Assembly: GCA_021731095.1 (NCBI GenBank)
Contig: JAKFYA010000236.1
Span: forward strand, 1 to 36,512
Source: Acidobacteriota bacterium
Lineage (GTDB): Bacteria; Acidobacteriota; Vicinamibacteria; Vicinamibacterales; UBA2999
Direction of reading: 5' to 3'
DNA: 36,512 nt
Position 1 is the first letter of the stretch. Each line of letters opens with the position of its first letter. The translations under genes and the position numbers were made by a program. Under the pieces are notes generated by a model, which was not told where the DNA came from, did no database searches, and worked only from the letters and a program-made list of their open reading frames with translations. Below are positions 1,051 to 12,977 of this stretch, one piece after another.

Positions 1051-2394
1051 GTGCCGATTCTGGCACTGGCCGCGCTGGGTGGTGCGTACTCCTCCTCGGT
1101 GCTCCCCCTCCTGGCGGCGGCCGCTGTCCTCTTCTTCGCAGGCGGCGGTGCCATCGCTTCCACCCGGGAGACCCGCCTCCTCGACGTCGCCCTCGTGCTG
1201 CTGGTTGTGGCCATGGGCCTGCAGATCCTTCCCCTCCCCTGGTCGTTCATCTCGTCGCTTTCGCCTCGCACGTTCGAGGTCATGGCCTCGCTGACGATGC
1301 TTGATCCGTCAGCCCCGGGTACGCTGAGCATCCGACCCGCCGTCAGTCGCGAGACCCTGATCTCGGCACTCTCTGTGGTGCTGGTGTTCTGGGGAGCGCG
1401 TGGGGTCTTTGACAACGGTGGCCTGCGGCCGGCGGTCAGGCTGCTGTCCTGGGCCGGCCTGGTCGCCGCGCTGGTCGGTCTGGCCCAGCGCGCCACCTCG
1501 CCCATGTTGCTGCTCTGGACCTGGAAGCCGCTGGACCCTGGCGGCAGACCATTCGGCCCATTCGTCAACAGGAATCACTTCGCCTTCTGGTTGCTGCTGG
1601 CGGGAGCTGTGGCGGCGGGCGCCGCCATTTCCCACATCCACGCGCATGGCCTGCTGCGTCGGCGCGCGCTGCGCGACCGGTTCGTGGACCTGCTCGCCGA
1701 CGGTACGGGCGTGATGCTCCTGGGGTCGGCCGCGCTCATGTGGCTGACACTGATTGCCTCAACCTCCAGGGGCGCCATTCTCGGCATGGCCGTGACCTGC
1801 CTGATTGCGCTGGTCATGGCGGGCCGGCGCATCCATTCACGCGCGGCCTTCCGGACCATGATCGTCCTGGTCGTGGCCCTGCTGTCCTGGGGGGTCTGGG
1901 CCAACATTCAGGCGCTGGCCAGCCGGCTGGATCTGAACAGTGGAGACGTCCCGCGCGTTGCCGTCTGGACAGACACCCTGCCGGTCATCTCGGCATTCGC
2001 AGTGACAGGAACTGGCGCCGGCACCTTCGCCGACGCGATGGTCCGCTTCCAGCAACACGAACGTCGCGTGCTGTTCAGCGAGGCTCAGAGCGAGTATCTG
2101 CAGTTGATGGCAGAAGGCGGGCTGCTGCTGGCAGTTCCGGTGCTGGTCGCCCTGCTGGCCTGGTTGCGGCTGTCTCTGATGCGCCTGAAAGCCAGCAGTC
2201 CCGGCTCGACCTGGATCAGACTGGGCGCGCTGGCAGGGCTGTCTGGAGCCGCCGTGCAGTGCCTCTGGGATTCGGCGCTGCGCATGCCGGCCAACGCGAT
2301 GCTGGTGGCCCTGCTCGCGGCCATCGCCGTCCACCAGCGCACGGATGGCGCCGGTTCAGCTGAGGGAAACGGGCGCGGCCCCGAACTCCACTGA
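1051..2394 (+). CDS. O-antigen ligase (Wzy_C/WaaL-like) family membrane protein
   Basis: Many hydrophobic helices; motifs GPFVNRNHFA, STSRGAILG, R..VW, GTGAGTF, AQSEYLQLMAEGG. Exact start uncertain. Confidence 0.85.
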   Translation: MPILALAALGGAYSSSVLPLLAAAAVLFFAGGGAIASTRETRLLDVALVLLVVAMGLQILPLPWSFISSLSPRTFEVMASLTMLDPSAPGTLSIRPAVSRETLISALSVVLVFWGARGVFDNGGLRPAVRLLSWAGLVAALVGLAQRATSPMLLLWTWKPLDPGGRPFGPFVNRNHFAFWLLLAGAVAAGAAISHIHAHGLLRRRALRDRFVDLLADGTGVMLLGSAALMWLTLIASTSRGAILGMAVTCLIALVMAGRRIHSRAAFRTMIVLVVALLSWGVWANIQALASRLDLNSGDVPRVAVWTDTLPVISAFAVTGTGAGTFADAMVRFQQHERRVLFSEAQSEYLQLMAEGGLLLAVPVLVALLAWLRLSLMRLKASSPGSTWIRLGALAGLSGAAVQCLWDSALRMPANAMLVALLAAIAVHQRTDGAGSAEGNGRGPELH

Positions 2395-3816
2395 GGCACA
2401 GGCCTGATAGAAGTCTGCCGGGATGCCGCGCGCCGGGCAGAACCGGTCCAGGAACCACGTCACCCGCTCGGCCAGCGCCGCTCCGGCTGGCCATGTCGGC
2501 ACCTGCTCCAGCCACGCGTCAAACACCTCTGACGGCCGTACGCCCTTCTCGCGACAGAGCATCCGGAAGGTCTTGCGATCGCCGATCTCCCGGAGGGCCG
2601 CTTCCAGTCTGAACCCATAGGCCACCTCATCTGGCGACATGGACAGATGGGACTCCACGAAGTAGGGCGGCTCGTGACTGAAACGCAGTCCCATCGCCTC
2701 CGCCTTGCGCCAGAGCTCGGTGCCTGGCAGGACCATCAGGGGAAACACGGCCAGTTCTGGCGGGTCCAGCGTCACGGCAAAGTCGAGCGAGCGGTGGAAC
2801 GAGGCGACGGTCTCTCCTGGAAGTCCATAGATCAGCTGGAGTTCGAAGGCGAGGCCATGCGCCTTCAGGAAGCCGATGCCATCGAGAAACTTCTGCATCT
2901 TCAGGCGGCGTTCGACCGTCGCCAGCACGTCCGCGTCCGTCGTCTGCAGGCCGACTTCCAGAAACGACACGTTGGCCTCGCGCATCAGGGCGGCAAGTTC
3001 GTCATCGATGAACTCGGCCCACACCTCCGCATGCACGGCAATGCGGCGGGGGTTGTGCGCGGCAATGAGCCGGCAAATCGCCTTCGCCCGGTCGGCGTAG
3101 AGATTGAACACCGGGTCCATGAGGTACAGCTCGTCGATATCGCGTTGCAGCCAGAACAGGATCTCGCGCTCCACGCGCGCCAGATCGAACCGCCGGTTCC
3201 GGACCGACAGGTCCTTGTTGTAGAAGCAGAAGTTGCAGCGGAACACGCATCCGCGTTGCGTCTCGATGCACACCACGCGACCAGGCCGGTCAGCATAGGC
3301 GTCGGTATGCGGGGACGGCAGCTCGTTGATGTCCCGCAGGAGTGGGGCCTCAGCATTCTCGATGATGCGGTCGGCCTGGCGATACGCGATGCCAGCCACC
3401 TCGTCGAGTGTGCGTCCGTCCCGCGCGCAGGCCACGACCTCCGCGAACGGCAGCTCGCCCTCACTGCACACCACCACGTCGACGAACGGGTTCGCGGTGA
3501 GCACGGCGGCCGCCACGGGTCCCACCTCAGGCCCGCCAAGGACCAGCAGCACATCGGGCCGAGCCGCCCGGATCAATCTGGCCGCGGCCATCAAGGTCCG
3601 CACATTCCAGACATAGCAGGACAGGCCCACCACGGCCGGCCCGGTAGACAGGATGCGGGCAGCGATGACCTCAGGTGCCGCCTCCTGGTCGAACTCCGCC
3701 AGGTCAATCTCACTGAGGGCATGCCCCGCTCGCTCCACGAGATAGGCCCTGAGGTACAGCAGCGCCAGCGGTATGAAGGACGGGTTCTTGTGAACGGTCG
3801 CCAGGCAGATCTTCAC
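2356..3816 (-). CDS. Cobalamin (B12)-binding radical SAM enzyme, candidate class B C-methyltransferase (486 aa)
   Basis: N-terminal B12-binding domain (PLALLYL, VVGLSCYVWN, LGGPEV, EGE), CxxxCxxC in TQRGCVFRCNFC, and IYGLPGET. GTG start at 3816 overlaps the upstream TGA (GTGA), so the ORF-track start at 3939 is probably too long. Confidence 0.9.
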   Translation of the reverse strand: MKICLATVHKNPSFIPLALLYLRAYLVERAGHALSEIDLAEFDQEAAPEVIAARILSTGPAVVGLSCYVWNVRTLMAAARLIRAARPDVLLVLGGPEVGPVAAAVLTANPFVDVVVCSEGELPFAEVVACARDGRTLDEVAGIAYRQADRIIENAEAPLLRDINELPSPHTDAYADRPGRVVCIETQRGCVFRCNFCFYNKDLSVRNRRFDLARVEREILFWLQRDIDELYLMDPVFNLYADRAKAICRLIAAHNPRRIAVHAEVWAEFIDDELAALMREANVSFLEVGLQTTDADVLATVERRLKMQKFLDGIGFLKAHGLAFELQLIYGLPGETVASFHRSLDFAVTLDPPELAVFPLMVLPGTELWRKAEAMGLRFSHEPPYFVESHLSMSPDEVAYGFRLEAALREIGDRKTFRMLCREKGVRPSEVFDAWLEQVPTWPAGAALAERVTWFLDRFCPARGIPADFYQACASVEFGAAPVSLS

Positions 3817-4796
3817 AGGCCGTTTCCCTCGAGACCGATCCCGTGCGCGGACGGCTCGGCTCCCCAGAAGGTGGACTGGTCCGTGGCCGCATGGCGAAGG
3901 CCACCCTGGGCATCCTCGATGCTGACCCGCCACCGCCAATGGATGCTGTCAAACCCGGTCATCTGCAGGCGGACGACATCCCCTGTCCCGACCGGGACAG
4001 CCGCAGGTAGCGGAAAGAAACCCTGCCGGTACTGCGTGCTGTTGTCAGACGGGCTGTTGCCGATGACGATGCCGTCTTCAAGGGTCGCCGAGAACCAGAT
4101 AGCCACCCCGTGCAACGAGCCGGCCCGTTCCATCGCCCACCGCACCTCCGCGTCGAATCCGTACCGGGCAAGCGCGTCGAGCCTGAATGTGGCCACCGCC
4201 ACAGGGCCGGCGAGCGACTCCGCCGGTGCCAACCAGACGGGATACCAGTTGTGGGTAGCCATGCCGCGGAAGCAGGACATGTCAACGCCTTCTCGCGGCG
4301 CATCCCAGCAGGTCACCGCGTCCGCATGCAGGCGCGCGGACTCGACCGGCGCTGCGTGGAGAACCACCAGGTCCGGCATGACCCGCCCGCCCGGGTTGAG
4401 AAAGCGCGTCACGGCGTCGCTGACGCACCGGAGGCCGTCCTTCTGAAGTCCGCAACAGTCGTACGTGTCCGTGACGATAAGGTCCACAGGCTCTGGTAGT
4501 GTGACCTGATCGGACGCCCCCTGGACCAGCACGACACGGTCTGCCACACCGTTCGCCTCGGCCAGCCGACGCACGAGGCCTGCCATGGGATGCGCCTCGA
4601 CCGCATAGACACGCCTGGCGCCTGCGCGCGCCGCCAGGACCGACAACACGCCACTCCCCGCCCCAAGGTCGAGCACGACCATGCCAGGCACGACAGCACT
4701 GGCCAGGGCTGTCGCGTAGCGCGTCAGTCGCTCACCGGTGCCGGCGAGGAGAAACCGCTGCTGCTGGAGAAACTCCGCCGACTCGGGGAATTGCAT
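3813..4796 (-). CDS. SAM-dependent methyltransferase with protein arginine methyltransferase (PRMT)-like architecture
   Basis: Motif I VVLDLGAGSGVLS, RVYAVEA, EPVDLIVTD, RFLNPGG, then a PRMT beta-barrel-like region LHGVAIWFSATL...SPSDNSTQYRQ at the THW-loop position. Confidence 0.85.
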   Translation of the reverse strand: MQFPESAEFLQQQRFLLAGTGERLTRYATALASAVVPGMVVLDLGAGSGVLSVLAARAGARRVYAVEAHPMAGLVRRLAEANGVADRVVLVQGASDQVTLPEPVDLIVTDTYDCCGLQKDGLRCVSDAVTRFLNPGGRVMPDLVVLHAAPVESARLHADAVTCWDAPREGVDMSCFRGMATHNWYPVWLAPAESLAGPVAVATFRLDALARYGFDAEVRWAMERAGSLHGVAIWFSATLEDGIVIGNSPSDNSTQYRQGFFPLPAAVPVGTGDVVRLQMTGFDSIHWRWRVSIEDAQGGLRHAATDQSTFWGAEPSAHGIGLEGNGL

Positions 4797-4808
4797 GGTG
4801 GCGAGGTC

Positions 4809-5435
4809 CTACAGGCCGTCGCGAAGGATGTCGAGAAAGGCGGGCTCGGACCGGAACCACCCTACGAAGGCCAGTTTCTCGACGGCGCCCGCGATGGGCG
4901 TGACCTGATGCTCAAGGGACTCATCGATACGGAACAGGAGTGCATCTCCTTCCCCGGTGTTGGCCACGTCATCAAGCACGGATCCAGACATCGCACTTCG
5001 CAGGCGGAACACGCCGCCCTCGTACGGGTGGTCTCCCAGATTGATGCTCATGCCGATCAAGCGGTGGTCCACGGCATCGTTGTGCCAGGACACATGGTGC
5101 GCGCCGCCCGGCAACATCCGGTACACCCGTCCCGTGAAGCAGCCAATGGCGCCGCAACCGGTGAGGTTCTGGATGCCGGCATAGACGACAGGGTCGTTCA
5201 CGAGAAAATGCAGGAGACTCACGGTGCCGTCGGCCTCGAGACACTGCTCGGTTCCGAGCCCCTCATGGTCCCGCTCGAGGAAGGTCCCCTGGTCCAGTCG
5301 CTGACGTATCGTCAGGCACAAGTCTGGCGACAGCACACCAGGTACCACCGCGCAGTTCGTGCGGGCAAACTGGTCGCGAACGCTGGACAGCTCATCAACA
5401 GGCCAGAACAGCCGAGACGTCAACGGCCCGGTCAT
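4809..5435 (-). CDS. Fe(II)/2-oxoglutarate oxygenase, prolyl-4-hydroxylase-like family, copy 2 (208 aa)
   Basis: WHND (HxD), INL...YEGG.F, GDALLF, EHQV (distal His), KLAFVGWF. ATG at 5435 is 2 nt after the upstream stop. Confidence 0.85.
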   Translation of the reverse strand: MTGPLTSRLFWPVDELSSVRDQFARTNCAVVPGVLSPDLCLTIRQRLDQGTFLERDHEGLGTEQCLEADGTVSLLHFLVNDPVVYAGIQNLTGCGAIGCFTGRVYRMLPGGAHHVSWHNDAVDHRLIGMSINLGDHPYEGGVFRLRSAMSGSVLDDVANTGEGDALLFRIDESLEHQVTPIAGAVEKLAFVGWFRSEPAFLDILRDGL

Positions 5436-5437
5436 TG

Positions 5438-6109
5438 TCAAACCCCCGCCCTGGCGCGAGCCAGGCCGACTTCCTCGGACCCAAACTCTTCGAGCAGTGA
5501 GACGAGAGACAGATCCGATACGAACCACCCTGCGAAGGTGGTACGCGGGACAGTGCCTGTGACCTCCGTGGCCCGATGCTCAAGGCCAGAGGCAATGCGG
5601 AACAGGACCGCATCTCCAAGGCCGGTATTCGCGATATCACACAGCAATCGCTGTCGCGGATCATCCAACAACTGGAAGTGCCCGCCTTCGTAGATGTCGA
5701 CGCTGAGGTTGAGGCTCACGCCAATGCGGCGCCCCTGCACGTTGTCCGAGTGCCACGAATCAAAGTGTCCGGCTCCCGGGACAAACCTGAACACACGCCC
5801 ACGAAAGCCTGACAGCGGCTCACAGCCGGTCAGTTCCTCGACGAGACGCAGCAACGCCGGGTCGTTGAAGGCGAAGTGCAGCAGGCTCAGGGCCGGATTC
5901 GGCATCATGGCGTGATCCGCCGCGATGTCGTGATGCTTCTCGTCAAAGAACGCCGACTCCGTCACATGCCTGAGCGCAAACGCCAACAGGTCGTCAGACA
6001 GCACCTGGCGAAGGTGCACGTAACGGTGTTCCGAAAACTGTGCTGACAGCGTGCGTCGTTCAGAGTCCGGCAACGGCGCAGCCAGGCCGTGTGGTGTCAG
6101 TTGCAGCAT
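5438..6109 (-). CDS. Fe(II)/2-oxoglutarate oxygenase, prolyl-4-hydroxylase-like family, copy 1 (223 aa)
   Basis: WHSD, LNL...YEGGHF, GDAVLF, EHRA, RTTFAGWF. ATG at 6109 overlaps the end of the kinase gene; a TTG at 6118 is an alternative start. Confidence 0.87.
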   Translation of the reverse strand: MLQLTPHGLAAPLPDSERRTLSAQFSEHRYVHLRQVLSDDLLAFALRHVTESAFFDEKHHDIAADHAMMPNPALSLLHFAFNDPALLRLVEELTGCEPLSGFRGRVFRFVPGAGHFDSWHSDNVQGRRIGVSLNLSVDIYEGGHFQLLDDPRQRLLCDIANTGLGDAVLFRIASGLEHRATEVTGTVPRTTFAGWFVSDLSLVSLLEEFGSEEVGLARARAGV

Positions 6110-7116
6110 GGGGGGCAAGTAGACAGGTCGGACAGGACTGCGTCACGCACCGTCGCAAGGAGGGGAAGCCGTCGAGGATAGGACAACCGCCTGACCGGTA
6201 TGCTCCCCGCCAGGTTCGTGACAAAGGCAAACTGCCGGGACAGACGTTCTGCGGTGGCCACGCGCCCATTGAAGGTATTGGCAATCAGCGCCAGGCACGC
6301 CTGGCGCAATGGCAAGTGGCGGATCCGAACCTGCGCATGGGCTTGCGCACGAGCCTCTGAACGACGCGCTTCGCCGATGACATAAATGGCCCGAAGCGGT
6401 ACAGCCGTCAGCGCCTGCTCACCATCCACCATGGGCATGGCCAGCTTGGGGGCCAGCAAGGGCATCGTGATGCCGGCCGGACGCCCCTGTCGCAATCGGG
6501 TCGCCATGCGGCGCATGAGCTTGATGCGTGGTGGCCCCAGGTGGGCCATCAGGGCTGTACCCTGGCGGGTGACGACCAGCTGGTCATCAGTGACCAGGTG
6601 ATACCCCGCCTGCACGAACGCAGCAGCCAGGCTGGATTTGCCGCGCCCTGATGGACCGAGGAACGCCACGCCCTGCCCGTTGATGGACACGACGCTTGCA
6701 TGAAGCGGTTCGAGACCCTGCTGGACCAAGGCGTAAGAGAGTGCGGGTCCGAGCATAAGGGCTTCGAACAGTTCCAGACCTGTCCGTCCCCCACGACGCC
6801 CAATGATGCGCGCGCCATCCCCGGTGACCAGGAACTCGATGGAGCGCCCCCAACGGAGATAGGACCCGCCATCATCAAGGGCGGCCCGTTCGAACCAGGA
6901 GGAGTGACGGGTGCGCGGCAGGAGGGCCGCAGAGGCAAACAGGCCATCATGGACAGATGTCGTCCCATCTTCAAGGGAGACGTCCCAGGACGGGGCGTAT
7001 GCGGATGACACGGGAGCAAACGGCAGGCGCCACGCGCTCGACAGGCGAACTGAAAAGAGATCGTATAGGTAGCGAGGCCCCTGGCCTGTGCCTCCCACCG
7101 CTGCGACCGGGGACAT
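6097..7116 (-). CDS. HPr kinase-like P-loop kinase, putative lasso-peptide kinase
   Basis: LHASVV...AFLGPSGRGKSSLAA...LVTDD, the His / Walker A / DD signature of HPrK-like kinases. ATG overlaps the precursor stop (TGATG). Confidence 0.88.
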   Translation of the reverse strand: MSPVAAVGGTGQGPRYLYDLFSVRLSSAWRLPFAPVSSAYAPSWDVSLEDGTTSVHDGLFASAALLPRTRHSSWFERAALDDGGSYLRWGRSIEFLVTGDGARIIGRRGGRTGLELFEALMLGPALSYALVQQGLEPLHASVVSINGQGVAFLGPSGRGKSSLAAAFVQAGYHLVTDDQLVVTRQGTALMAHLGPPRIKLMRRMATRLRQGRPAGITMPLLAPKLAMPMVDGEQALTAVPLRAIYVIGEARRSEARAQAHAQVRIRHLPLRQACLALIANTFNGRVATAERLSRQFAFVTNLAGSIPVRRLSYPRRLPLLATVRDAVLSDLSTCPPCCN

Positions 7117-7280
7117 CAGGACTTGGTGGTCTTCCGGATCCCGTCGCTCTTCTTGCCGCCCTTTGCCAGCGCCAGATGGCGCAGGTCTCCGTAGACCGTC
7201 AGCTTCGGCGTCCTGTAGGCCTTGCGCGACGTCTCGCCCTGGTCTCTCGATTCTGAATCAGACGATGACACGTTCTTCAT
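7116..7280 (-). CDS. Lasso peptide precursor, 54 aa: MKNVSSSDSESRDQGETSRKAYRTPKLTVYGDLRHLALAKGGKKSDGIRKTTKS
   Basis: Manually translated (below the 60-aa ORF cutoff). Leader motif YRTPKLTVYGDL fits YxxPxLxxxG. ATG overlaps the cyclase stop (ATGA), its TGA overlaps the kinase ATG, and AGGAG lies 8 nt upstream. It fills the gap exactly. Confidence 0.92.
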   Translation of the reverse strand: MKNVSSSDSESRDQGETSRKAYRTPKLTVYGDLRHLALAKGGKKSDGIRKTTKS

Positions 7281-9217
7281 GACCTGCTCTCCTGCCTGCT
7301 AGGTGAACCGCGCCCGACTGTCGACATCGGACCAAAGAACTGCTGCAACCAGACTTCCAGCGCCAGCACATCCGTGAGTCCCCGGCTCGCGTCGAACGTG
7401 TCGTTCGCCAGTGCCGCATGGGCCTCACGCAGGGCCCGGTCCGCTCCGGCCCGGACATAGCCTCGCTGCACCGCTTCGCCCGTCGCCGCCAGCCGCGAGA
7501 CGATCCGATTATAGTCGCGGGACACACCGTCATTCACCAGCGACGTGAAGCTGACTTTGGTGCGCCTGGACGCAATCGCCTCTGGCAGCACACCACGCAG
7601 ACTTTCCCGGAGCAGCGCCTTGGGCACCCCGCCAGCGCACAGCACGTCACCGGGAATAGCCATCAGGAAGGCGACCAGGTCCCGGTCCAGGAACGGGAAC
7701 GCGTGCTCGAGTCCTTCGATAGCCCCGGCCTTGTTGTGCCACTCCAGGCAGAACACGGCGTACCGGGACCTGGCCTCCCGGTAGAGACTGGCGCCGTGGG
7801 CCGTGAATCCGGCCGGCACCCGGACAGGCGGGCGCTCGGCGCTCCGGCGAAACGCGTCGGTGTACCAGCCTCGGACATCGCGCCGTGCCGCCAGACGCTG
7901 ACGCGCGCGGCGAAGGCGGCGCAACACCGCCATCGGCAGGTGTCGCACGACCAGCCCTCTCAGGAGTCGCGTGGTGAAGTAGGAGGCATCCGTGACGCTC
8001 AGCCACTCACCAAAGCCCCGCGCCTGCCGCCAGGCCTCGCGCCAGGCGCCCTGTTCGACCAGGTCCAGCAGATAACCATCATCTGCCAGGAACTGGTCGC
8101 CCCAGTCGCCCGACAGCAACACCCGGACGCCCTTGGACCTCACAAACCGGTTGAACGCCTGGTCGCTGGTCCACTCCATATCGAGGGATGGCACCTCGAC
8201 GTGCCAGACCCCCCGGTCCACCTCATCGACCATGCCCAACTGCGGATGCGGGAAGCGATGGGACTGGAGGCCGGTAGCGACCTCGACCGCTCTGAGAAAC
8301 GCTTCCTCGTCAGCCTTCGACCCTGGTGGCGGCGTATAGGTGACGCCAACCGGGGACTGGGCATGGCCGCGCCCCTGGTGGCGCAGGTGCTCCGCCACGC
8401 AGAAGATCGAGGACGAGTCCACGCCACCACTGAGCGACACGCCGACCGGCGCTGCGCTGCGCAGGCGACGCGACACGGCCTGCTCAAAATGTTCGCGAAA
8501 GGCCTCGGCGTACGCGCCGGGCGACGCAAGCCTGATGCGTGCGCCGGGATCGAAGTCCCAATACCGGCGTGTCCGTGCCTCGCGGCCGCGCACCACGACC
8601 TGATGGCCTGGCAACACGCTGAAGACCTGGTCGAACACTGTCAGGCCCTGCGTGTCCTCGGACATCAGGGCATTGAAGTAGAAGTCTGCGATGCATGCGT
8701 CGCACGGTGCGACGTGCGCCTCCGGGTGTGCCAGCAGGGCTTTCACTTCGGTGCCGAACAGTAGGTGCGTCGGCCCCTGCTGGTAGTAGAGGGGTCGTAC
8801 TCCCATGGCATCGCGAGCAAGGCAGAGCATGCGTGTCGCGGTCTGGTAGGCCGCAAGGGCGAAGTCGCCCAGGAGGTAGTCGGGAGCCGCCTCGCCCCAT
8901 CGCGCGTAGGCCGACAGCGCCAGGTTCTCGTCTGGCGTGTCCGCGCGAAGATGGTGGTCGCCCAGCCTCGCGAGCAGGTCGTCACGGTTGTCGAGTCGGC
9001 CATCAAAGGCGATGACCCAGCGATCGTCCCGGCAGACCTGGGCCAACGCTGGCGCCTCAGCGTCCCCGGGAGCCCAGTCGCGTACGGCACACCCGAACGA
9101 CGCATCCCGGAAATGCCGTTCGACGCCACGGTGAGCCATGGCCGCAGACATCGCCCGCAGTTCCGGTGCCCCGGCCAGACGTTCGTCGAAATTGAGGACG
9201 CCGCAGATGCCGCTCAC
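7277..9217 (-). CDS. Lasso cyclase (C protein), asparagine synthetase-like macrolactam synthetase (646 aa)
   Basis: Starts GTG-SGICG, with Ser in place of the catalytic Cys of AsnB MCGI. Also DGRLDNR, GDFA, ARDAMGVRPLYY, ATP-binding SLSGGVDSS, SGDWGDQ, FPFLDRDLV, KALLR. The ORF-track start at 9373 would overlap the B1 gene. Confidence 0.9.
   Translation of the reverse strand: MSGICGVLNFDERLAGAPELRAMSAAMAHRGVERHFRDASFGCAVRDWAPGDAEAPALAQVCRDDRWVIAFDGRLDNRDDLLARLGDHHLRADTPDENLALSAYARWGEAAPDYLLGDFALAAYQTATRMLCLARDAMGVRPLYYQQGPTHLLFGTEVKALLAHPEAHVAPCDACIADFYFNALMSEDTQGLTVFDQVFSVLPGHQVVVRGREARTRRYWDFDPGARIRLASPGAYAEAFREHFEQAVSRRLRSAAPVGVSLSGGVDSSSIFCVAEHLRHQGRGHAQSPVGVTYTPPPGSKADEEAFLRAVEVATGLQSHRFPHPQLGMVDEVDRGVWHVEVPSLDMEWTSDQAFNRFVRSKGVRVLLSGDWGDQFLADDGYLLDLVEQGAWREAWRQARGFGEWLSVTDASYFTTRLLRGLVVRHLPMAVLRRLRRARQRLAARRDVRGWYTDAFRRSAERPPVRVPAGFTAHGASLYREARSRYAVFCLEWHNKAGAIEGLEHAFPFLDRDLVAFLMAIPGDVLCAGGVPKALLRESLRGVLPEAIASRRTKVSFTSLVNDGVSRDYNRIVSRLAATGEAVQRGYVRAGADRALREAHAALANDTFDASRGLTDVLALEVWLQQFFGPMSTVGRGSPSRQESRS
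7289..7293 (-). promoter_or_regulatory. Shine-Dalgarno site (AGGAG) for the precursor gene
   Basis: Minus strand reads gcAGGAGagcaggtcATG, with an 8-nt spacer. Confidence 0.7.
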
Positions 9218-9233
9218 AGGTAGACTGATCCTA
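9218..9233. promoter_or_regulatory. Possible bidirectional, leaderless-type promoter between cyclase and B1
   Basis: Only 15 nt separate the divergent start codons. TAGACT (9221-9226, +) lies 6 nt before ATG 9233; TAGGAT (9233-9228, -) lies 10 nt before GTG 9217. Both fit TAnnnT. Confidence 0.35.
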
Positions 9234-9532
9234 TGACGAAAGTAACCCTGTCCGATGCGGTCAGGCCGGGGGCCAACGTCCTGTTCCGCGAGCTTGAAGG
9301 CGAAGGCATTCTCTTGAGCCTCGAGAGCGGAAAGTACTTCGGCCTCGACGCGGTCGGCACGCGGATCTGGCAACTGCTCGGCGCCGGTCCGTCACTCACC
9401 GGCGTCTGCGAGACGCTCGCCGCGGAATTCGATGTGGAGCGCGCCACCATCGAGGCCGACCTGCTGGCCCTGGTCGCGGAACTCTCGTCCCACGGACTCG
9501 TGCTGGTGGCGGAGCACGCCCCGTCGGCATGA
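9233..9532 (+). CDS. PqqD-family RiPP recognition element (lasso B1 protein)
   Basis: 99 aa; RELEGEGILLSLESGKYFGLDAVGTRIWQLL...LAAEFDVE...ADLLALVAELSSHGLV is a typical PqqD/RRE pattern. Confidence 0.93.
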   Translation: MTKVTLSDAVRPGANVLFRELEGEGILLSLESGKYFGLDAVGTRIWQLLGAGPSLTGVCETLAAEFDVERATIEADLLALVAELSSHGLVLVAEHAPSA

Positions 9533-9993
9533 TGGCCACCGGCGAGGCGTGGCTCGAACGCGTCGCCTGGGTTCGACAGGAGTGGCCGCTGATCGGCGAG
9601 GCGATGCTGGCCGCACTGGTGGTGGAGACGGGCCTCCGCGCCACCTCGCATCCCCGCCTGTGGCACTGGGCCGGGGTTGTCCCTCGCGACATGGCCTCCC
9701 GGCCAGACCCGGCGCTGCTCTGGGCCATCCTCCGCGCCAGCTACTGGGCATGCCTGCTGCTGCCGGTGCGTGGAACCTGCCTCCGTGAAAGCCTGGTGGC
9801 CGCGCGCCTGCTGTCGCGCCGCGGTCACCCCGTCACCGTGCAGGTGGGCGTCCGCAAGGCCGGTCCCCGTCTGGACTCCCATGCCTGGCTCGAAGATGGC
9901 GATGGACGCGCGCTCACCGATCCCCTTGCGGGGTACGCCCCTCTGATCGCCGACACGCATGACCGAACAGCTCTGCCGGATCCTGCGCGGTAA
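9529..9993 (+). CDS. Lasso leader peptidase (B2, transglutaminase-like cysteine protease)
   Basis: TCLRESL (catalytic Cys), VQVGV, SHAWLE (His). ATGA overlap with the B1 stop. Confidence 0.92.
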   Translation: MMATGEAWLERVAWVRQEWPLIGEAMLAALVVETGLRATSHPRLWHWAGVVPRDMASRPDPALLWAILRASYWACLLLPVRGTCLRESLVAARLLSRRGHPVTVQVGVRKAGPRLDSHAWLEDGDGRALTDPLAGYAPLIADTHDRTALPDPAR

Positions 9994-11110
9994 CCCGGTC
10001 GACTGGCCACCAGACGCCGCCGGTGCCGAGACCTTGCAGCGGGAGGCCTATGAGCATGGCGTCCATACCCTGGTCGCGGCACGGCTGTCGAATCCGTCGT
10101 ATGCCGACTGCCCGATCTGGGTCCGGCAACCGTTCGCGCGTGAACGCGTGGACGAGGCCGCTGAAGAGCAACTGGTACGCCAGTCGATCCGGTCAGTCAT
10201 CGCCGCGTGCGCCAGTGCGGGCCTGCACCCGCTCATCTTCAAGGGTGCCGCCCTCGCCTTCACCCACTATGACGACCCGAGCGACCGTCCCTATGTGGAT
10301 GTCGACCTTCTCGTCCGACCGGGCGAGGCGCGCCTGGCGGCACAGGTGCTCGAATCGCTGGGCTACCAGGCCGCCGTCAGCGTGACCGGCGCGCTGCTGG
10401 CGGATGCCCCGGATGCGACCACCATCGATCGGTATGCGCCCAGCTCGCAGGTCCCGTTCACGAAGCGTGATGCCCGGGGAACGCCGCTCGAGATCGACCT
10501 GCACTGGCGCCCCACAATTCCCCAGGTGTTTGCCCAGGTGTTCGACCTGGATGCGTTGCACGCCGACTCGGTCGCCGTGCCGGCCCTGGGTCCGCAGGCG
10601 CGCGCGTTTGGACCCGTTCATGCGCTGGTGCTGGCCTGCCTGCATCGCCTCGCCCACCACCACGGCAGCGACCGGCTGATCTGGCTGTACGACCTGCACC
10701 TGCTGGGGTCACGTCTCACGACGGGTCAGGTCACAGCGCTACTCGAACTGGCGCGTGCGCATCAGGTGGCCGGGGTCTGCCTGGATGGACTGACCCTGGC
10801 CAGGCAGGCCTTCCAGAGCCCGTTCCCGGACGCACTCATCGAAGGGCTCCGCGAGGCGGCCGCTGCCAGTGACGAGCCGTCCGCCATGTATCTGCATCAT
10901 CAGGTTCGCCAGATGGACGTGCTGCGCGCAGACCTCGCGGCCCAGCCCAACCTCTCCGCGCGCATCCGCCTGTTGCGCGAACACCTCTTTCCACCGCCTG
11001 CCTATCTGCGCCAGCGTTACGGCGCACGCGCGTCCCTCTGGCTGCCCTGGCTGTATGTCCGGCGTGCGGTGTCCGGTGCACGCCGGTGGATGACCTCGCC
11101 ACGCCCCTGA
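9959..11110 (+). CDS. Nucleotidyltransferase family protein (NTP_transf_5-like)
   Basis: FKGAALA..Y.....R...DVDLLV, EIDLHW, RLIWLYDL. Confidence 0.88.
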   Translation: MTEQLCRILRGNPVDWPPDAAGAETLQREAYEHGVHTLVAARLSNPSYADCPIWVRQPFARERVDEAAEEQLVRQSIRSVIAACASAGLHPLIFKGAALAFTHYDDPSDRPYVDVDLLVRPGEARLAAQVLESLGYQAAVSVTGALLADAPDATTIDRYAPSSQVPFTKRDARGTPLEIDLHWRPTIPQVFAQVFDLDALHADSVAVPALGPQARAFGPVHALVLACLHRLAHHHGSDRLIWLYDLHLLGSRLTTGQVTALLELARAHQVAGVCLDGLTLARQAFQSPFPDALIEGLREAAAASDEPSAMYLHHQVRQMDVLRADLAAQPNLSARIRLLREHLFPPPAYLRQRYGARASLWLPWLYVRRAVSGARRWMTSPRP

Positions 11111-11117
11111 CAACACA

Positions 11118-11166
11118 AAGGGGATGCCGATGGCATCCCCTTCATGACGGCGGCTCTTCAGCCGCC
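11118..11166. terminator. Two tandem hairpins between convergent genes, probable (bidirectional) terminator
   Basis: AAGGGGATGCC-gat-GGCATCCCCTT (11118-11142, perfect 11-bp stem, followed on the - strand by a T-rich tract) and GGCGGCT-cttc-AGCCGCC (11149-11166). Confidence 0.7.
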
Positions 11167-11184
11167 ACATCCCCCGGACCCGCG

Positions 11185-12345
11185 TCAGCTCAGCATGCGC
11201 CTGAAGAGCAGGGTTCGCGCCGGCTGGTGGCGGAACAACGCCAGAATCAGATCCCGATGGCGATTGAAGCGCGCCGTCTGTCGCACGATCGGCATGATGC
11301 CGTTGGTATTCGCCAGCCTGAAGAGGGCATCCATTTCGCCGTCACTGAGCTTCTGCGCCAGCATGCGCAGCGCCAGCTGCGTCCGGAACTCGGGAATCAG
11401 TTCCTTCCGCCAGCCCGCTTCATACACAGACAGGGCGGACGCATCCAGCCGGTCCCGGTGCAGCGCGTCGCGCAACACCTCGGCGGCCATCGCACCCGTC
11501 GTCATGCTGTAGTAGATGCCGCCCCCTGTGGTTGGCTTGACCAGCCCTGCGGCGTCCCCGATGGCGACCACACGATCGGCATAGGTCCGGCGGATCGCCC
11601 CGAGCGGCAACAGTCTGCGGCGCGGCGATGCCGCGATCGTGCCTGCCACGCCCCAGGACGGGCCGATTCTCTCCATCAACCGGCGAAACGGGCCGGCGGC
11701 GTCGCCGTCGCACATCAGGCCGATGCGTACGTGCGGTCCGTCGGGTCGCACCGTCGGCACAGCCCAGGCAAACCCCTGCGGGGCGACATCCAGACCGAAG
11801 TAGACCTCGACCTCGCCACTGCGACCCGCGGGCACTTCCATCTGGGCCGATGAGAGATACACCGACGGCAGACCCATGCCGAGCTGGCGCTGGAAGCTGT
11901 AATTGACCCCGCAGGCGAGCACGACCGCACGTCCCACGACCGGAGCCTGCCCCTCGATCCCGACCTCCACGGAGTGCTCGCCGTTCACCAGGCCCGTGGC
12001 GCGGGCTCCCCGGATGAGGGCGGCACCTGCGGCAACAGCTCTGGTGGCCAGCATCCCGTCGAACCGGACGCGGTCCACCACCACGGCTTCCAGGCGGTCG
12101 GGAGTCCACGAGAGCTCAAGCCCTCCGGGCGAATGAAATCGGACCGCCGGCAAGGGATTGAGCACGGCATCGCGCGGAAGCCCGAGCTCCTCGAACACCT
12201 CATCTCCCAGGATGCCGGTGCAATGCGGAGGCTGGCCTATCTCGGCGTGTTCCTCGAGGACAGCCACATCAAAGCCGTCACGCGCCAGCTTCGCGGCTGC
12301 GTGCAGGCCTCCCGGGCCGCCACCGATGATCACGACATCATGCAT
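11185..12345 (-). CDS. Geranylgeranyl reductase-family FAD-dependent oxidoreductase
   Basis: DVVIIGGGPGG, HCTG, VDRVRFD, GFAWAVP, IGDAAGLVKPTTGGGIYY. Confidence 0.88.
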   Translation of the reverse strand: MHDVVIIGGGPGGLHAAAKLARDGFDVAVLEEHAEIGQPPHCTGILGDEVFEELGLPRDAVLNPLPAVRFHSPGGLELSWTPDRLEAVVVDRVRFDGMLATRAVAAGAALIRGARATGLVNGEHSVEVGIEGQAPVVGRAVVLACGVNYSFQRQLGMGLPSVYLSSAQMEVPAGRSGEVEVYFGLDVAPQGFAWAVPTVRPDGPHVRIGLMCDGDAAGPFRRLMERIGPSWGVAGTIAASPRRRLLPLGAIRRTYADRVVAIGDAAGLVKPTTGGGIYYSMTTGAMAAEVLRDALHRDRLDASALSVYEAGWRKELIPEFRTQLALRMLAQKLSDGEMDALFRLANTNGIMPIVRQTARFNRHRDLILALFRHQPARTLLFRRMLS

Positions 12346-12377
12346 ACGGTGCGGCCATTATATGTGTCCCGTGCCAG

Positions 12378-12977
12378 TCACACCTTCGGCCCCGGGTGTT
12401 CCCATCGGCCACGGGCACTGATCCAGAACGACAGCGCAATGAGACGGACATCCAGCCAGAAGCCGGCACGCCGGCAGTAGAGCGCGTCGAAACGGAACTT
12501 CTGCGGTCGCGGCAGGTCACGCCGCGCATAGACCTGGGCCAACCCGGTCAGCCCCGGACGCACGGCGTGTCGCGCCACGTAGCCGGGAATCTCCTCCAGA
12601 CGCACGAAGCGTCCATCGCCACGTGCCTCGATTTCGCCCACCGCCAGGGGGCGAGGGCCGACGAAGCTCATGTCGCCAATGAAGATGTTCCAGAGCTGAG
12701 GCAGCTCATCAAGCGCCATGGCGCGCAACAGGCGACCCACACGGGTGATGCGCTGGTCATTGGCCACCACCTGCCTGGCAGGTTCGACTGACGCCGCCAC
12801 GAACATCGACCGGAACTTGTAGGCGGTGAATGGCCGTCCGCCACGACCGACTCGCGGCTGGGTGAAGAACACCGGGCCCCCATCCTCCAGCCGGATCGCC
12901 AGGGCGACCAGCAGCCACACCGGTGCGGACAGAACGAGCCCGAGGCCAGACAGACACAGGTCGAACAGGCGTTTCAT
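12378..12977 (-). CDS. Priming sugar transferase (polyprenyl-phosphate phosphoglycosyl transferase, Bac_transf)
   Basis: KRLFDL, GPVFFTQPRVG, KFRSM, LDELPQLWNI..GDMSFVGPRP, RPGLTGLAQV. Confidence 0.93.
   Translation of the reverse strand: MKRLFDLCLSGLGLVLSAPVWLLVALAIRLEDGGPVFFTQPRVGRGGRPFTAYKFRSMFVAASVEPARQVVANDQRITRVGRLLRAMALDELPQLWNIFIGDMSFVGPRPLAVGEIEARGDGRFVRLEEIPGYVARHAVRPGLTGLAQVYARRDLPRPQKFRFDALYCRRAGFWLDVRLIALSFWISARGRWEHPGPKV

Follow-up and report, generated by a model that had tools for sequence, protein, structure and literature searches.

Precursor gene A

We analyzed a 36,512-nucleotide contig, JAKFYA010000236.1 of assembly GCA_021731095.1, hereafter called the window. The assembly comprises 3.6 Mb in 490 contigs and is an estimated 81% complete. 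The window contains a putative lasso peptide cluster, and the subject of this study is gene A, a 54-codon open reading frame (ORF) located between the genes for a predicted lasso cyclase (C) and an HPr-kinase-like peptide kinase (K). An earlier, sequence-only reading of the window had proposed gene A as a lasso precursor gene. The coordinates of all features are collected in Table 1.

Gene A was found exactly where that reading had placed it, on the minus strand with an ATG start, and a mechanical ORF listing gave its translation as MKNVSSSDSESRDQGETSRKAYRTPKLTVYGDLRHLALAKGGKKSDGIRKTTKS. The ATG, at 7280, is the sole start codon in the stop-to-stop frame 7116-7298. The good Shine-Dalgarno sequence and the coupling to both neighbours that had been described are likewise present: GGAGAG lies 6 nt ahead of the ATG, the TGA of the cyclase gene overlaps the ATG of gene A (ATGA), and the TGA of gene A overlaps the ATG of the kinase gene (TGATG). 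The GC contents at the three codon positions of gene A are 0.47, 0.51, and 0.82, and the third-position values (GC3) of the neighbouring genes, 0.71-0.80, are alike. The absence of gene A from the ORF track, noted in the sequence-only reading, may be explained by its 54 residues, which fall below the 60-residue default of the ORF list. The public protein collection includes the exact peptide, a singleton with NCBI as its source, so gene A has been called by at least one gene caller.

A hidden Markov model (HMM) was built from 13 precursors of other genomes, with the window excluded to avoid circularity. Among the 69,479 six-frame segments of the assembly, gene A was the sole match (E = 1.3e-12; runner-up, 1.7), and the alignment spanned the residue before Tyr22 to Asp46-Gly47, running through LAL-AKGGKKSDG. 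A regular expression for lasso leader and core matched twice in 6.5 million six-frame residues; of the two matches, only gene A ends 12-30 residues past the predicted cleavage site. These results support the identification of gene A as a genuine lasso peptide precursor gene in an uncultured soil or water bacterium of the Vicinamibacterales (Acidobacteriota).

Leader, core, and predicted ring register

A YxxPxL motif spans leader positions −17 to −12 in lasso precursors (PMC10368454). Placing YRTPKL of gene A at these positions makes Ala39 residue 1 of the core. In an alignment of 16 precursors, Y22, R23, P25, L27, G31, and D46 were invariant, and T37 and K40 were nearly so. The leader string previously picked out, Y-R-T-P-K-L-T-V-Y-G-D-L-R-H-L-A-L, corresponds to residues 22-38 of the translation, and the core coordinates given with it, 7166-7119, are correct. 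The predicted core, AKGGKKSDGIRKTTKS, has Asp46 (core Asp8) as its only acidic residue, as had been stated.

We evaluated this register using the 120 best of 747 public proteins retrieved with the 16-sequence alignment as query (E ≤ 0.001; 2,049 candidates scored). Asp occupies core position 8 in 116 of the 120; in the remaining four, 1-4 extra residues precede an unchanged AKGG...D spacing. At position 1, 93 have Ala, 10 Gly, 6 Val, 6 Thr, 2 Ile, and one each Met, Gln, and Ser, such that 104 of the 120 have Ala, Gly, or Ser; position 2 is Lys in 116. The closest core starts with AKGGKKSDG and is identical to that of gene A over these nine residues. Among close precursors from related loci, window included, Asp8 was present in 15 of 16; five HMM hits lacking YxxPxL...G and the duplicate loci L021-L023 were left out of these counts. 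As the AKGG...D spacing is kept among the 120 relatives, a ring between Ala1 and Asp8 is favoured. The comparative data thus support the register that the sequence-only reading had derived from the single sequence: cleavage between Leu38 and Ala39, an Ala1-Asp8 macrolactam, and an 8-residue tail. The check for homologous precursors that it had recommended returned relatives from both related loci and the public search, and in nearly all of these the register is kept.

Strain variation is consistent with constraint on this part of the gene. A variant of approximately 90% identity, present in contigs of two further runs, has six differences within gene A and no indels. Residues 18-54 carry three synonymous third-position changes (K44, I48, and R49) and no listed non-synonymous change; residues 1-17, the variable N-terminal part of the leader, carry the replacements N3K, S11A, and T17A. 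In the same contigs, seven residues are replaced among the first 40 codons of the kinase and five in the tail of the cyclase. The comparison drew on contigs alone: the variant contigs are of low depth, differences up to about 22 nt from a contig end, including 7173-7194 of the variant, may be unlisted, and contigs X1 do not cover 7120-7187. Nine runs contain this stretch; no RNA run was listed among them, which argues neither for nor against expression.

Table 1. Features of the predicted lasso peptide cluster in the window.
Feature	Position (nt)	Strand	Basis and remarks
Precursor gene A	7116-7280	−	54 residues + stop; leader residues 1-38, core 39-54; mechanical ORF listing and HMM of foreign precursors
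Shine-Dalgarno GGAGAG	7287-7292	−	6 nt ahead of the gene A ATG; sequence
Leader recognition motif YRTPKL (Y−17, P−14, L−12)	7200-7217	−	Y22, R23, P25, L27 invariant in 16/16; positions as in PMC10368454
Predicted core AKGGKKSDGIRKTTKS	7119-7166	−	16 residues; family alignment and strain variant
Core Ala1	7164-7166	−	Predicted ring amine; residue 39
Core Asp8	7143-7145	−	Predicted ring acceptor; residue 46
Thr14-Lys15	7122-7127	−	[ST]-[KR] site of predicted core
Ser16	7119-7121	−	C-terminal residue of predicted core
Lasso cyclase C (Asn-synthetase-like)	7277-9217	−	Pfam Asn_synthase, 2.4e-46; GTG start at 9217 inferred
HPr-kinase-like peptide Ser/Thr kinase K	6097-7116	−	Pfam Hpr_kinase_C, 5.4e-9; PDB HPrK, 1.1e-5
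Fe/2OG oxygenase 1	5438-6109	−	2OG-FeII_Oxy_3, 9.4e-8; ATG at 6109, 13-nt overlap with end of K
Fe/2OG oxygenase 2	4809-5435	−	2OG-FeII_Oxy_3, 5.2e-8; ATG at 5435, 2 nt past oxygenase 1 stop
PRMT-like methyltransferase	3813-4796	−	PRMT_C, 7.4e-15; PRMT6, 4.2e-29; 12-nt gap after oxygenase 2
B12-binding radical-SAM enzyme	2356-3816	−	Radical_SAM and B12-binding; GTG at 3816 overlaps PRMT-like stop (GTGA)
B1, PqqD-type RiPP recognition element	9233-9532	+	PqqD, 8.1e-19
B2, transglutaminase-like leader peptidase	9529-9993	+	Transglut_core3, 6.8e-16; NF033537, 62.2 bits, above 33-bit cutoff
NTP_transf_5 nucleotidyltransferase (NT)	9959-11110	+	PF14907, 1.4e-34
FAD-dependent oxidoreductase, possible cluster member	11185-12345	−	Pfam; convergent to NT

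A kinase-linked precursor family

A public protein search with the gene A peptide alone matched only itself, and the 16-sequence alignment was needed to reach relatives. By record titles and source names, the family has members in Acidobacteriota, Methylomirabilota/Rokubacteria, Nitrospirota, Gemmatimonadota, and Anaerolineae; two of the 120 best relatives carry the NCBI name 'lasso RiPP family leader peptide-containing protein' (RiPP, a peptide made by ribosomes and then modified post-translationally). The family core consensus is AKGGxxxDGxGKPxT[KR], based on public relatives P0002-P0121 and loci L035-L068.

The kinase provided a second route to the family. Matches to it were found in 49 of 61 related genomes (G000 included; the unpublished G026 is counted in this tally only). 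In 12 of 19 foreign kinase loci with 1.5-kb flanks, a credible small ORF with the same leader adjoins the kinase gene. A four-kinase alignment searched against species-representative genomes returned 56 loci, assigned by record title to Acidobacteriota, Methylomirabilota/Rokuibacteriota, Nitrospirales, Gemmatimonadales, Binataceae, Myxococcota, and Alphaproteobacteria; 37 of these contained precursor candidates by regular expression, a few of them spurious. A search of genome contigs with a single kinase yielded 85 pattern matches, none of which was confirmed. Small homologous ORFs lie directly upstream of the kinase homologue in many loci, and the gene order C-A-K is conserved in L021 and L022. 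Judged by sequence, gene A is a new, atypical member of a large, unusually conserved, kinase-linked, and unstudied lasso family.

RiPP cores are usually hypervariable, and conservation of the AKGG core across several phyla is odd for a RiPP. Two further observations concern gene content. Four loci (L026, L027, L028, and L070) each have two different precursor genes, placed either around the kinase gene or after it, and the assembly of the window has one. In L059, the frame of a family precursor at 3661-3927 on the plus strand (…LTA-VKGGAGGDGTGKPKTK…) continues for approximately 40 residues without a stop, which may reflect a frameshift, a fusion, or a longer tail.

Candidate phosphorylation sites

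The core of gene A offers two tail hydroxyls to the kinase, Thr14 and Ser16. PadeK, ThcoK, and SyanK phosphorylate the C-terminal Ser of the linear lasso precursor (PMC8498205, PMC10368454), and BsfK phosphorylates the non-terminal Ser3, also on the linear precursor (PMC10368454). As the characterized kinases use a C-terminal Ser or Ser3, both residues are live candidates. The C-terminal Ser emphasized in the sequence-only reading is indeed present, as Ser16, but it is not a feature of the family: only 6 of the 120 relatives end in Ser, and 13 in Ser or Thr. By contrast, a [ST]-[KR] pair located 6-8 residues past the ring Asp occurs in all 120 (TK in 67, TR in 42, SK in 6, and SR in 5). In gene A this pair is Thr14-Lys15, at an offset of 6 from Asp8. 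In 6 of the 120 relatives the entire core has no hydroxyl residue outside this pair, and in 25 the tail has none.

On this comparison we lean slightly towards Thr14 as the kinase target. Phosphorylation of Ser16, the pattern of paeninodin and of the Sphingobium peptide and the one that the sequence-only reading implied, is a serious contender that we consider somewhat less probable: it agrees with the known action of three kinases on a C-terminal Ser and with the Ser at the end of this core, but runs counter to the rarity of that Ser in the family, to the universal [ST]-[KR] pair, and to the use of a non-terminal Ser by BsfK. With at least 747 precursors sharing the Thr/Ser-Lys/Arg site near a peptide kinase, a partnership established for the kinase-retrieved loci, the choice of the marked residue is directly testable.

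Biosynthetic machinery

On the minus strand the gene order is C, A, K, oxygenase 1, oxygenase 2, PRMT-like methyltransferase, and B12-binding radical-SAM enzyme (rSAM), and consecutive genes either overlap or lie no more than 12 nt apart. B1, B2, and NT are divergent, on the plus strand upstream of the C-A-K operon. By sequence, the core machinery, B1, B2, and C, is intact and adjacent to gene A. In the kinase, H139, G159-K160-S161, and D177-D178 are invariant in 11 of 11 homologues, leaving the P-loop and the catalytic Asp intact. Of 14 extended related loci, 11 have an NT gene, as do 22 of the 56 loci, examined with 4-kb flanks.

Recognition of the leader by B1 was evaluated by co-folding, as the sequence-only reading had suggested, using alignments of 20 rows for B1 and 16 for the precursor. 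The pair scored 0.52 and the best of three controls 0.01. On this scale 58 of 80 solved complexes attained the pass mark, as did 2 of 110 mismatched pairs, but only 7 of the 80, and both mismatches, did so at ≤0.60. Contact agreement between runs was ≥96%, and the partner pLDDT was ≥55. Complexes of RiPP recognition elements (RREs) with leaders have already been solved, and the pass may therefore reflect no more than likeness to these structures. The model lends weak support to binding of the precursor leader by B1.

Putative tailoring enzymes

The enzymes encoded downstream of the kinase gene differ in how often they recur. PRMT-like genes were found in 6 of the 14 extended related loci and 5 of the 56 loci with 4-kb flanks, oxygenase homologues in one of each set, and rSAM homologues in neither (0/14 and 0/56). 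The PRMT-like protein is a true PRMT homologue with both domains; in alignment with PRMT6, the Glu residues of the double-E loop are replaced (D...D) and THW reads TQY. Some cores in loci with PRMT-like genes lack Arg, so the substrate of this enzyme may not be arginine. The rSAM protein matched the KedN5-family C-methyltransferase model at 2.6e-49, below the cutoff. No solved structure was related in sequence to oxygenase 1 at E ≤ 0.01.

Metagenomes scanned with the rSAM protein yielded 80 loci at 39-76% identity. Lasso genes lie next to the rSAM gene, in differing orders, in 10 of the 36 loci that span at least 5 kb, and the other 26 have no lasso gene within the available DNA. The order FAD→rSAM→B2 is contiguous in L097, L103, L109, and L124, all of which also have C and NT, and in L107, where neither is shown. 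Elsewhere, K precedes rSAM in three loci, PRMT-like, K, and rSAM adjoin in one, and an oxygenase and NT lie beside rSAM in another. Related precursors occur in four of the 10 loci. The FAD-rSAM pair, whose two genes flank the cluster in the window, is also found in L105 and L162, without detectable lasso genes in the available DNA. We considered whether rSAM and the FAD enzyme are merely unrelated syntenic neighbours and rejected this as the main interpretation, as they are contiguous with different lasso genes (B2, K, and PRMT-like) in different orders. Linkage that persists despite rearrangement, combined with translational coupling in the window, makes the rSAM, PRMT-like, and oxygenase enzymes probable cluster members.

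A search of openly accessible article texts returned no description of lasso tailoring by PRMT-type or B12 radical-SAM enzymes. Tentatively, and with the odds against it, this divergent AKGG-family core may carry its phosphate on the invariant internal Thr and undergo C-methylation by the rSAM enzyme, N-methylation by the PRMT-like enzyme, and hydroxylation by the two Fe/2OG oxygenases. If so, the product would be one of the most heavily tailored lasso peptides, and conservation across phyla would suggest that the family serves a physiological function, not a purely antibiotic one. The translationally coupled genes for the PRMT-like and B12 radical-SAM enzymes and for the two Fe/2OG oxygenases, which elsewhere recur with lasso genes in varied orders, are candidates for new lasso tailoring chemistry.

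Proposed pathway and alternatives

We estimate a probability of roughly 0.85 that gene A encodes a class-II-type lasso precursor, matured by a split-B pathway to a 16-residue product as follows. B1 would bind the leader via Y22, P25, and L27, and K, probably with other co-transcribed enzymes, would act on the linear, B1-bound precursor. K would phosphorylate a tail hydroxyl, Thr14 or the C-terminal Ser16, and NT may then decorate the phosphate. B2 would cleave between Leu38 and Ala39, after which C would activate the side chain of Asp46 (core Asp8) and link it to the amine of Ala1 around the tail. The predicted product is AKGGKKSDGIRKTTKS, a 16-residue peptide of charge +5 with an 8-residue ring and an 8-residue tail.

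Several observations weigh against this pathway. The curated models NF033528 (lasso_cyano), lasso cyclase, and lasso B1 were all matched below their cutoffs: gene A scored 23.3 bits against NF033528 (E = 4.5e-5; cutoff, 33 bits) and the cyclase 316.7 bits against NF033535 (3.5e-94; cutoff, 525 bits). The core belongs to the shortest length class, 16 residues, shared by 4 of the 120 relatives. It lacks the GxGKP tail segment of the family and has no Pro, which is present in the tail of 112 relatives. No lasso-type exporter gene was seen beside the cluster among the genes of the window. The support from the co-fold is weak, and ring formation, threading, and each tailoring step are predictions from the genes. 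Finally, leader position −2 is Ala37, the sole case among 121 sequences, the other 120 having Thr; the pattern that the sequence-only reading had taken as established, with Thr at this position, does not hold here. Thr(−2) has been reported as a recognition element, and leader removal was reduced in variants of BsfA substituted at I(−2) (PMC10368454).

These peculiarities raise the prospect that gene A is a decaying or poorly processed copy that yields little or no mature lasso peptide, which we consider improbable. The unique Ala(−2), the loss of the GxGKP segment and its Pro, the minimal core length, and a charge above the 0 to +4 of the relatives would all fit such a copy. The eleven neighbouring genes all have open frames and are closely coupled, however, and in the diverged strain variant the listed residues 18-54 are identical at the protein level while the neighbours have changed. 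The Ala(−2) codon was read identically, with no other letters, in contigs from a second study (X5); being the same in an independent study, it is no assembly slip. Moreover, a residue other than Thr at −2 is processed in a validated case, Ile in BsfA, and precursors with Ile, Val, or Ala at −2 have been predicted by others (PMC10368454). Gene A as a functional precursor gene remains our preferred reading, and its natural Ala(−2) leader offers a ready way to probe the strictness of the Thr(−2) rule.

A shifted register, in which residue 1 is Leu38 (9-residue ring) or Lys40 (7-residue ring) and the acceptor is still Asp46, is slightly less probable still. Rings of 7, 8, and 9 residues are all formally allowed because Asp46 is the sole acidic residue of the core. 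Position 1 is Val, Thr, Ile, Met, or Gln in 16 of the 120 relatives, and the four with inserts before AKGG indicate that the distance from YxxPxL is not absolutely fixed. Against a shift, 116 of the 120 keep both the distance separating Y(−17) from residue 1 and the spacing A/G/S-K-G-G...D8, and Lys at position 1 was found in none of them and in one of 39 precursors from related loci. The comparison disfavours rings of 7 or 9 residues relative to the 8-residue ring. A chance ORF without a product, suggested by its shortness and the lack of a curated model above cutoff, is effectively refuted by the family of at least 747 members, the genome-unique HMM match, the synteny, the GC3 of 0.82, and the listing of only synonymous changes in the core.

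Relation to characterized lasso systems

Lasso peptides attract interest as stable scaffolds and as antibiotics, and to our knowledge almost none have been described from Acidobacteria or from other soil and water phyla that are difficult to culture. Gene A supplies a concrete 16-residue core for synthesis or expression. The strongly basic core of lassomycin has 16 residues, 8 in a ring of the Gly1-Asp8 type and 8 in the tail. Likened by features, its dimensions match the core predicted here; it differs in being actinobacterial, in its C-terminal methyl ester, and in having no kinase modification.

The cluster has the components of the systems for paeninodin (Paenibacillus dendritiformis) and the peptides of Sphingobium yanoikuyae and Thermobacillus composti: split B1 and B2, a cyclase of the Asn-synthetase type, and an HPr-kinase homologue. 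Paeninodin-type cores end in Ser, as does this one, and the kinase works on the linear precursor (PMC8498205). The family described here is set apart from that type by features, not by sequence comparison: it has an invariant internal [ST]-[KR] in place of a conserved C-terminal Ser, and is represented here in Acidobacteriota, with extra enzymes. BsfA of Bradymonas sediminis shares YxxPxL at −17 to −12, a Gly1-Asp8-type ring, and a residue other than Thr at −2, and BsfK uses a non-terminal Ser with the assistance of B1 (PMC10368454). Compared by features, BsfA has Ile at −2 and its phosphorylation site, Ser3, lies in the ring, whereas gene A has Ala at −2 and Gly at position 3.

In the pseudomycoidin pathway of Bacillus pseudomycoides, a nucleotidyltransferase adds hexose to phospho-Ser (PMC8498205). 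That cluster and the present one both combine a kinase with a nucleotidyltransferase, the PF14907 protein being likened to PsmN by description; host and precursor differ. The Fe/2OG oxygenase CanE of canucin A acts on the linear lasso precursor, aided by B1 (PMC9266682). Likened again by description, the window has two paralogous PF13640-type oxygenases, and the core of gene A has a single Asp, which is needed for the ring. By its gene neighbourhood, the cluster would extend the known phosphorylated-lasso type.

Genomic surroundings

Only 15 nt separate the predicted GTG start of the cyclase gene, at 9217 on the minus strand, from the B1 ATG, at 9233 on the plus strand. This spacing implies either divergent promoters inside coding sequence or a cyclase start further upstream, overlapping B1; the cyclase frame is open up to TTG 9373. 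Consensus scans of 2000-12500 returned no promoters and three terminator-like sites, the mean for shuffled sequence being 4.1.

The cluster is surrounded by a polysaccharide biosynthesis and export locus, which occupies 12378-36512 and 156-2394 of the window. It encodes a Wzc-like tyrosine kinase, an O-antigen-ligase-like protein, a sugar transferase, multiple GT4 glycosyltransferases, a carbamoyltransferase-like protein, a deacetylase, an ABC ATPase, and a Wza-like exporter.

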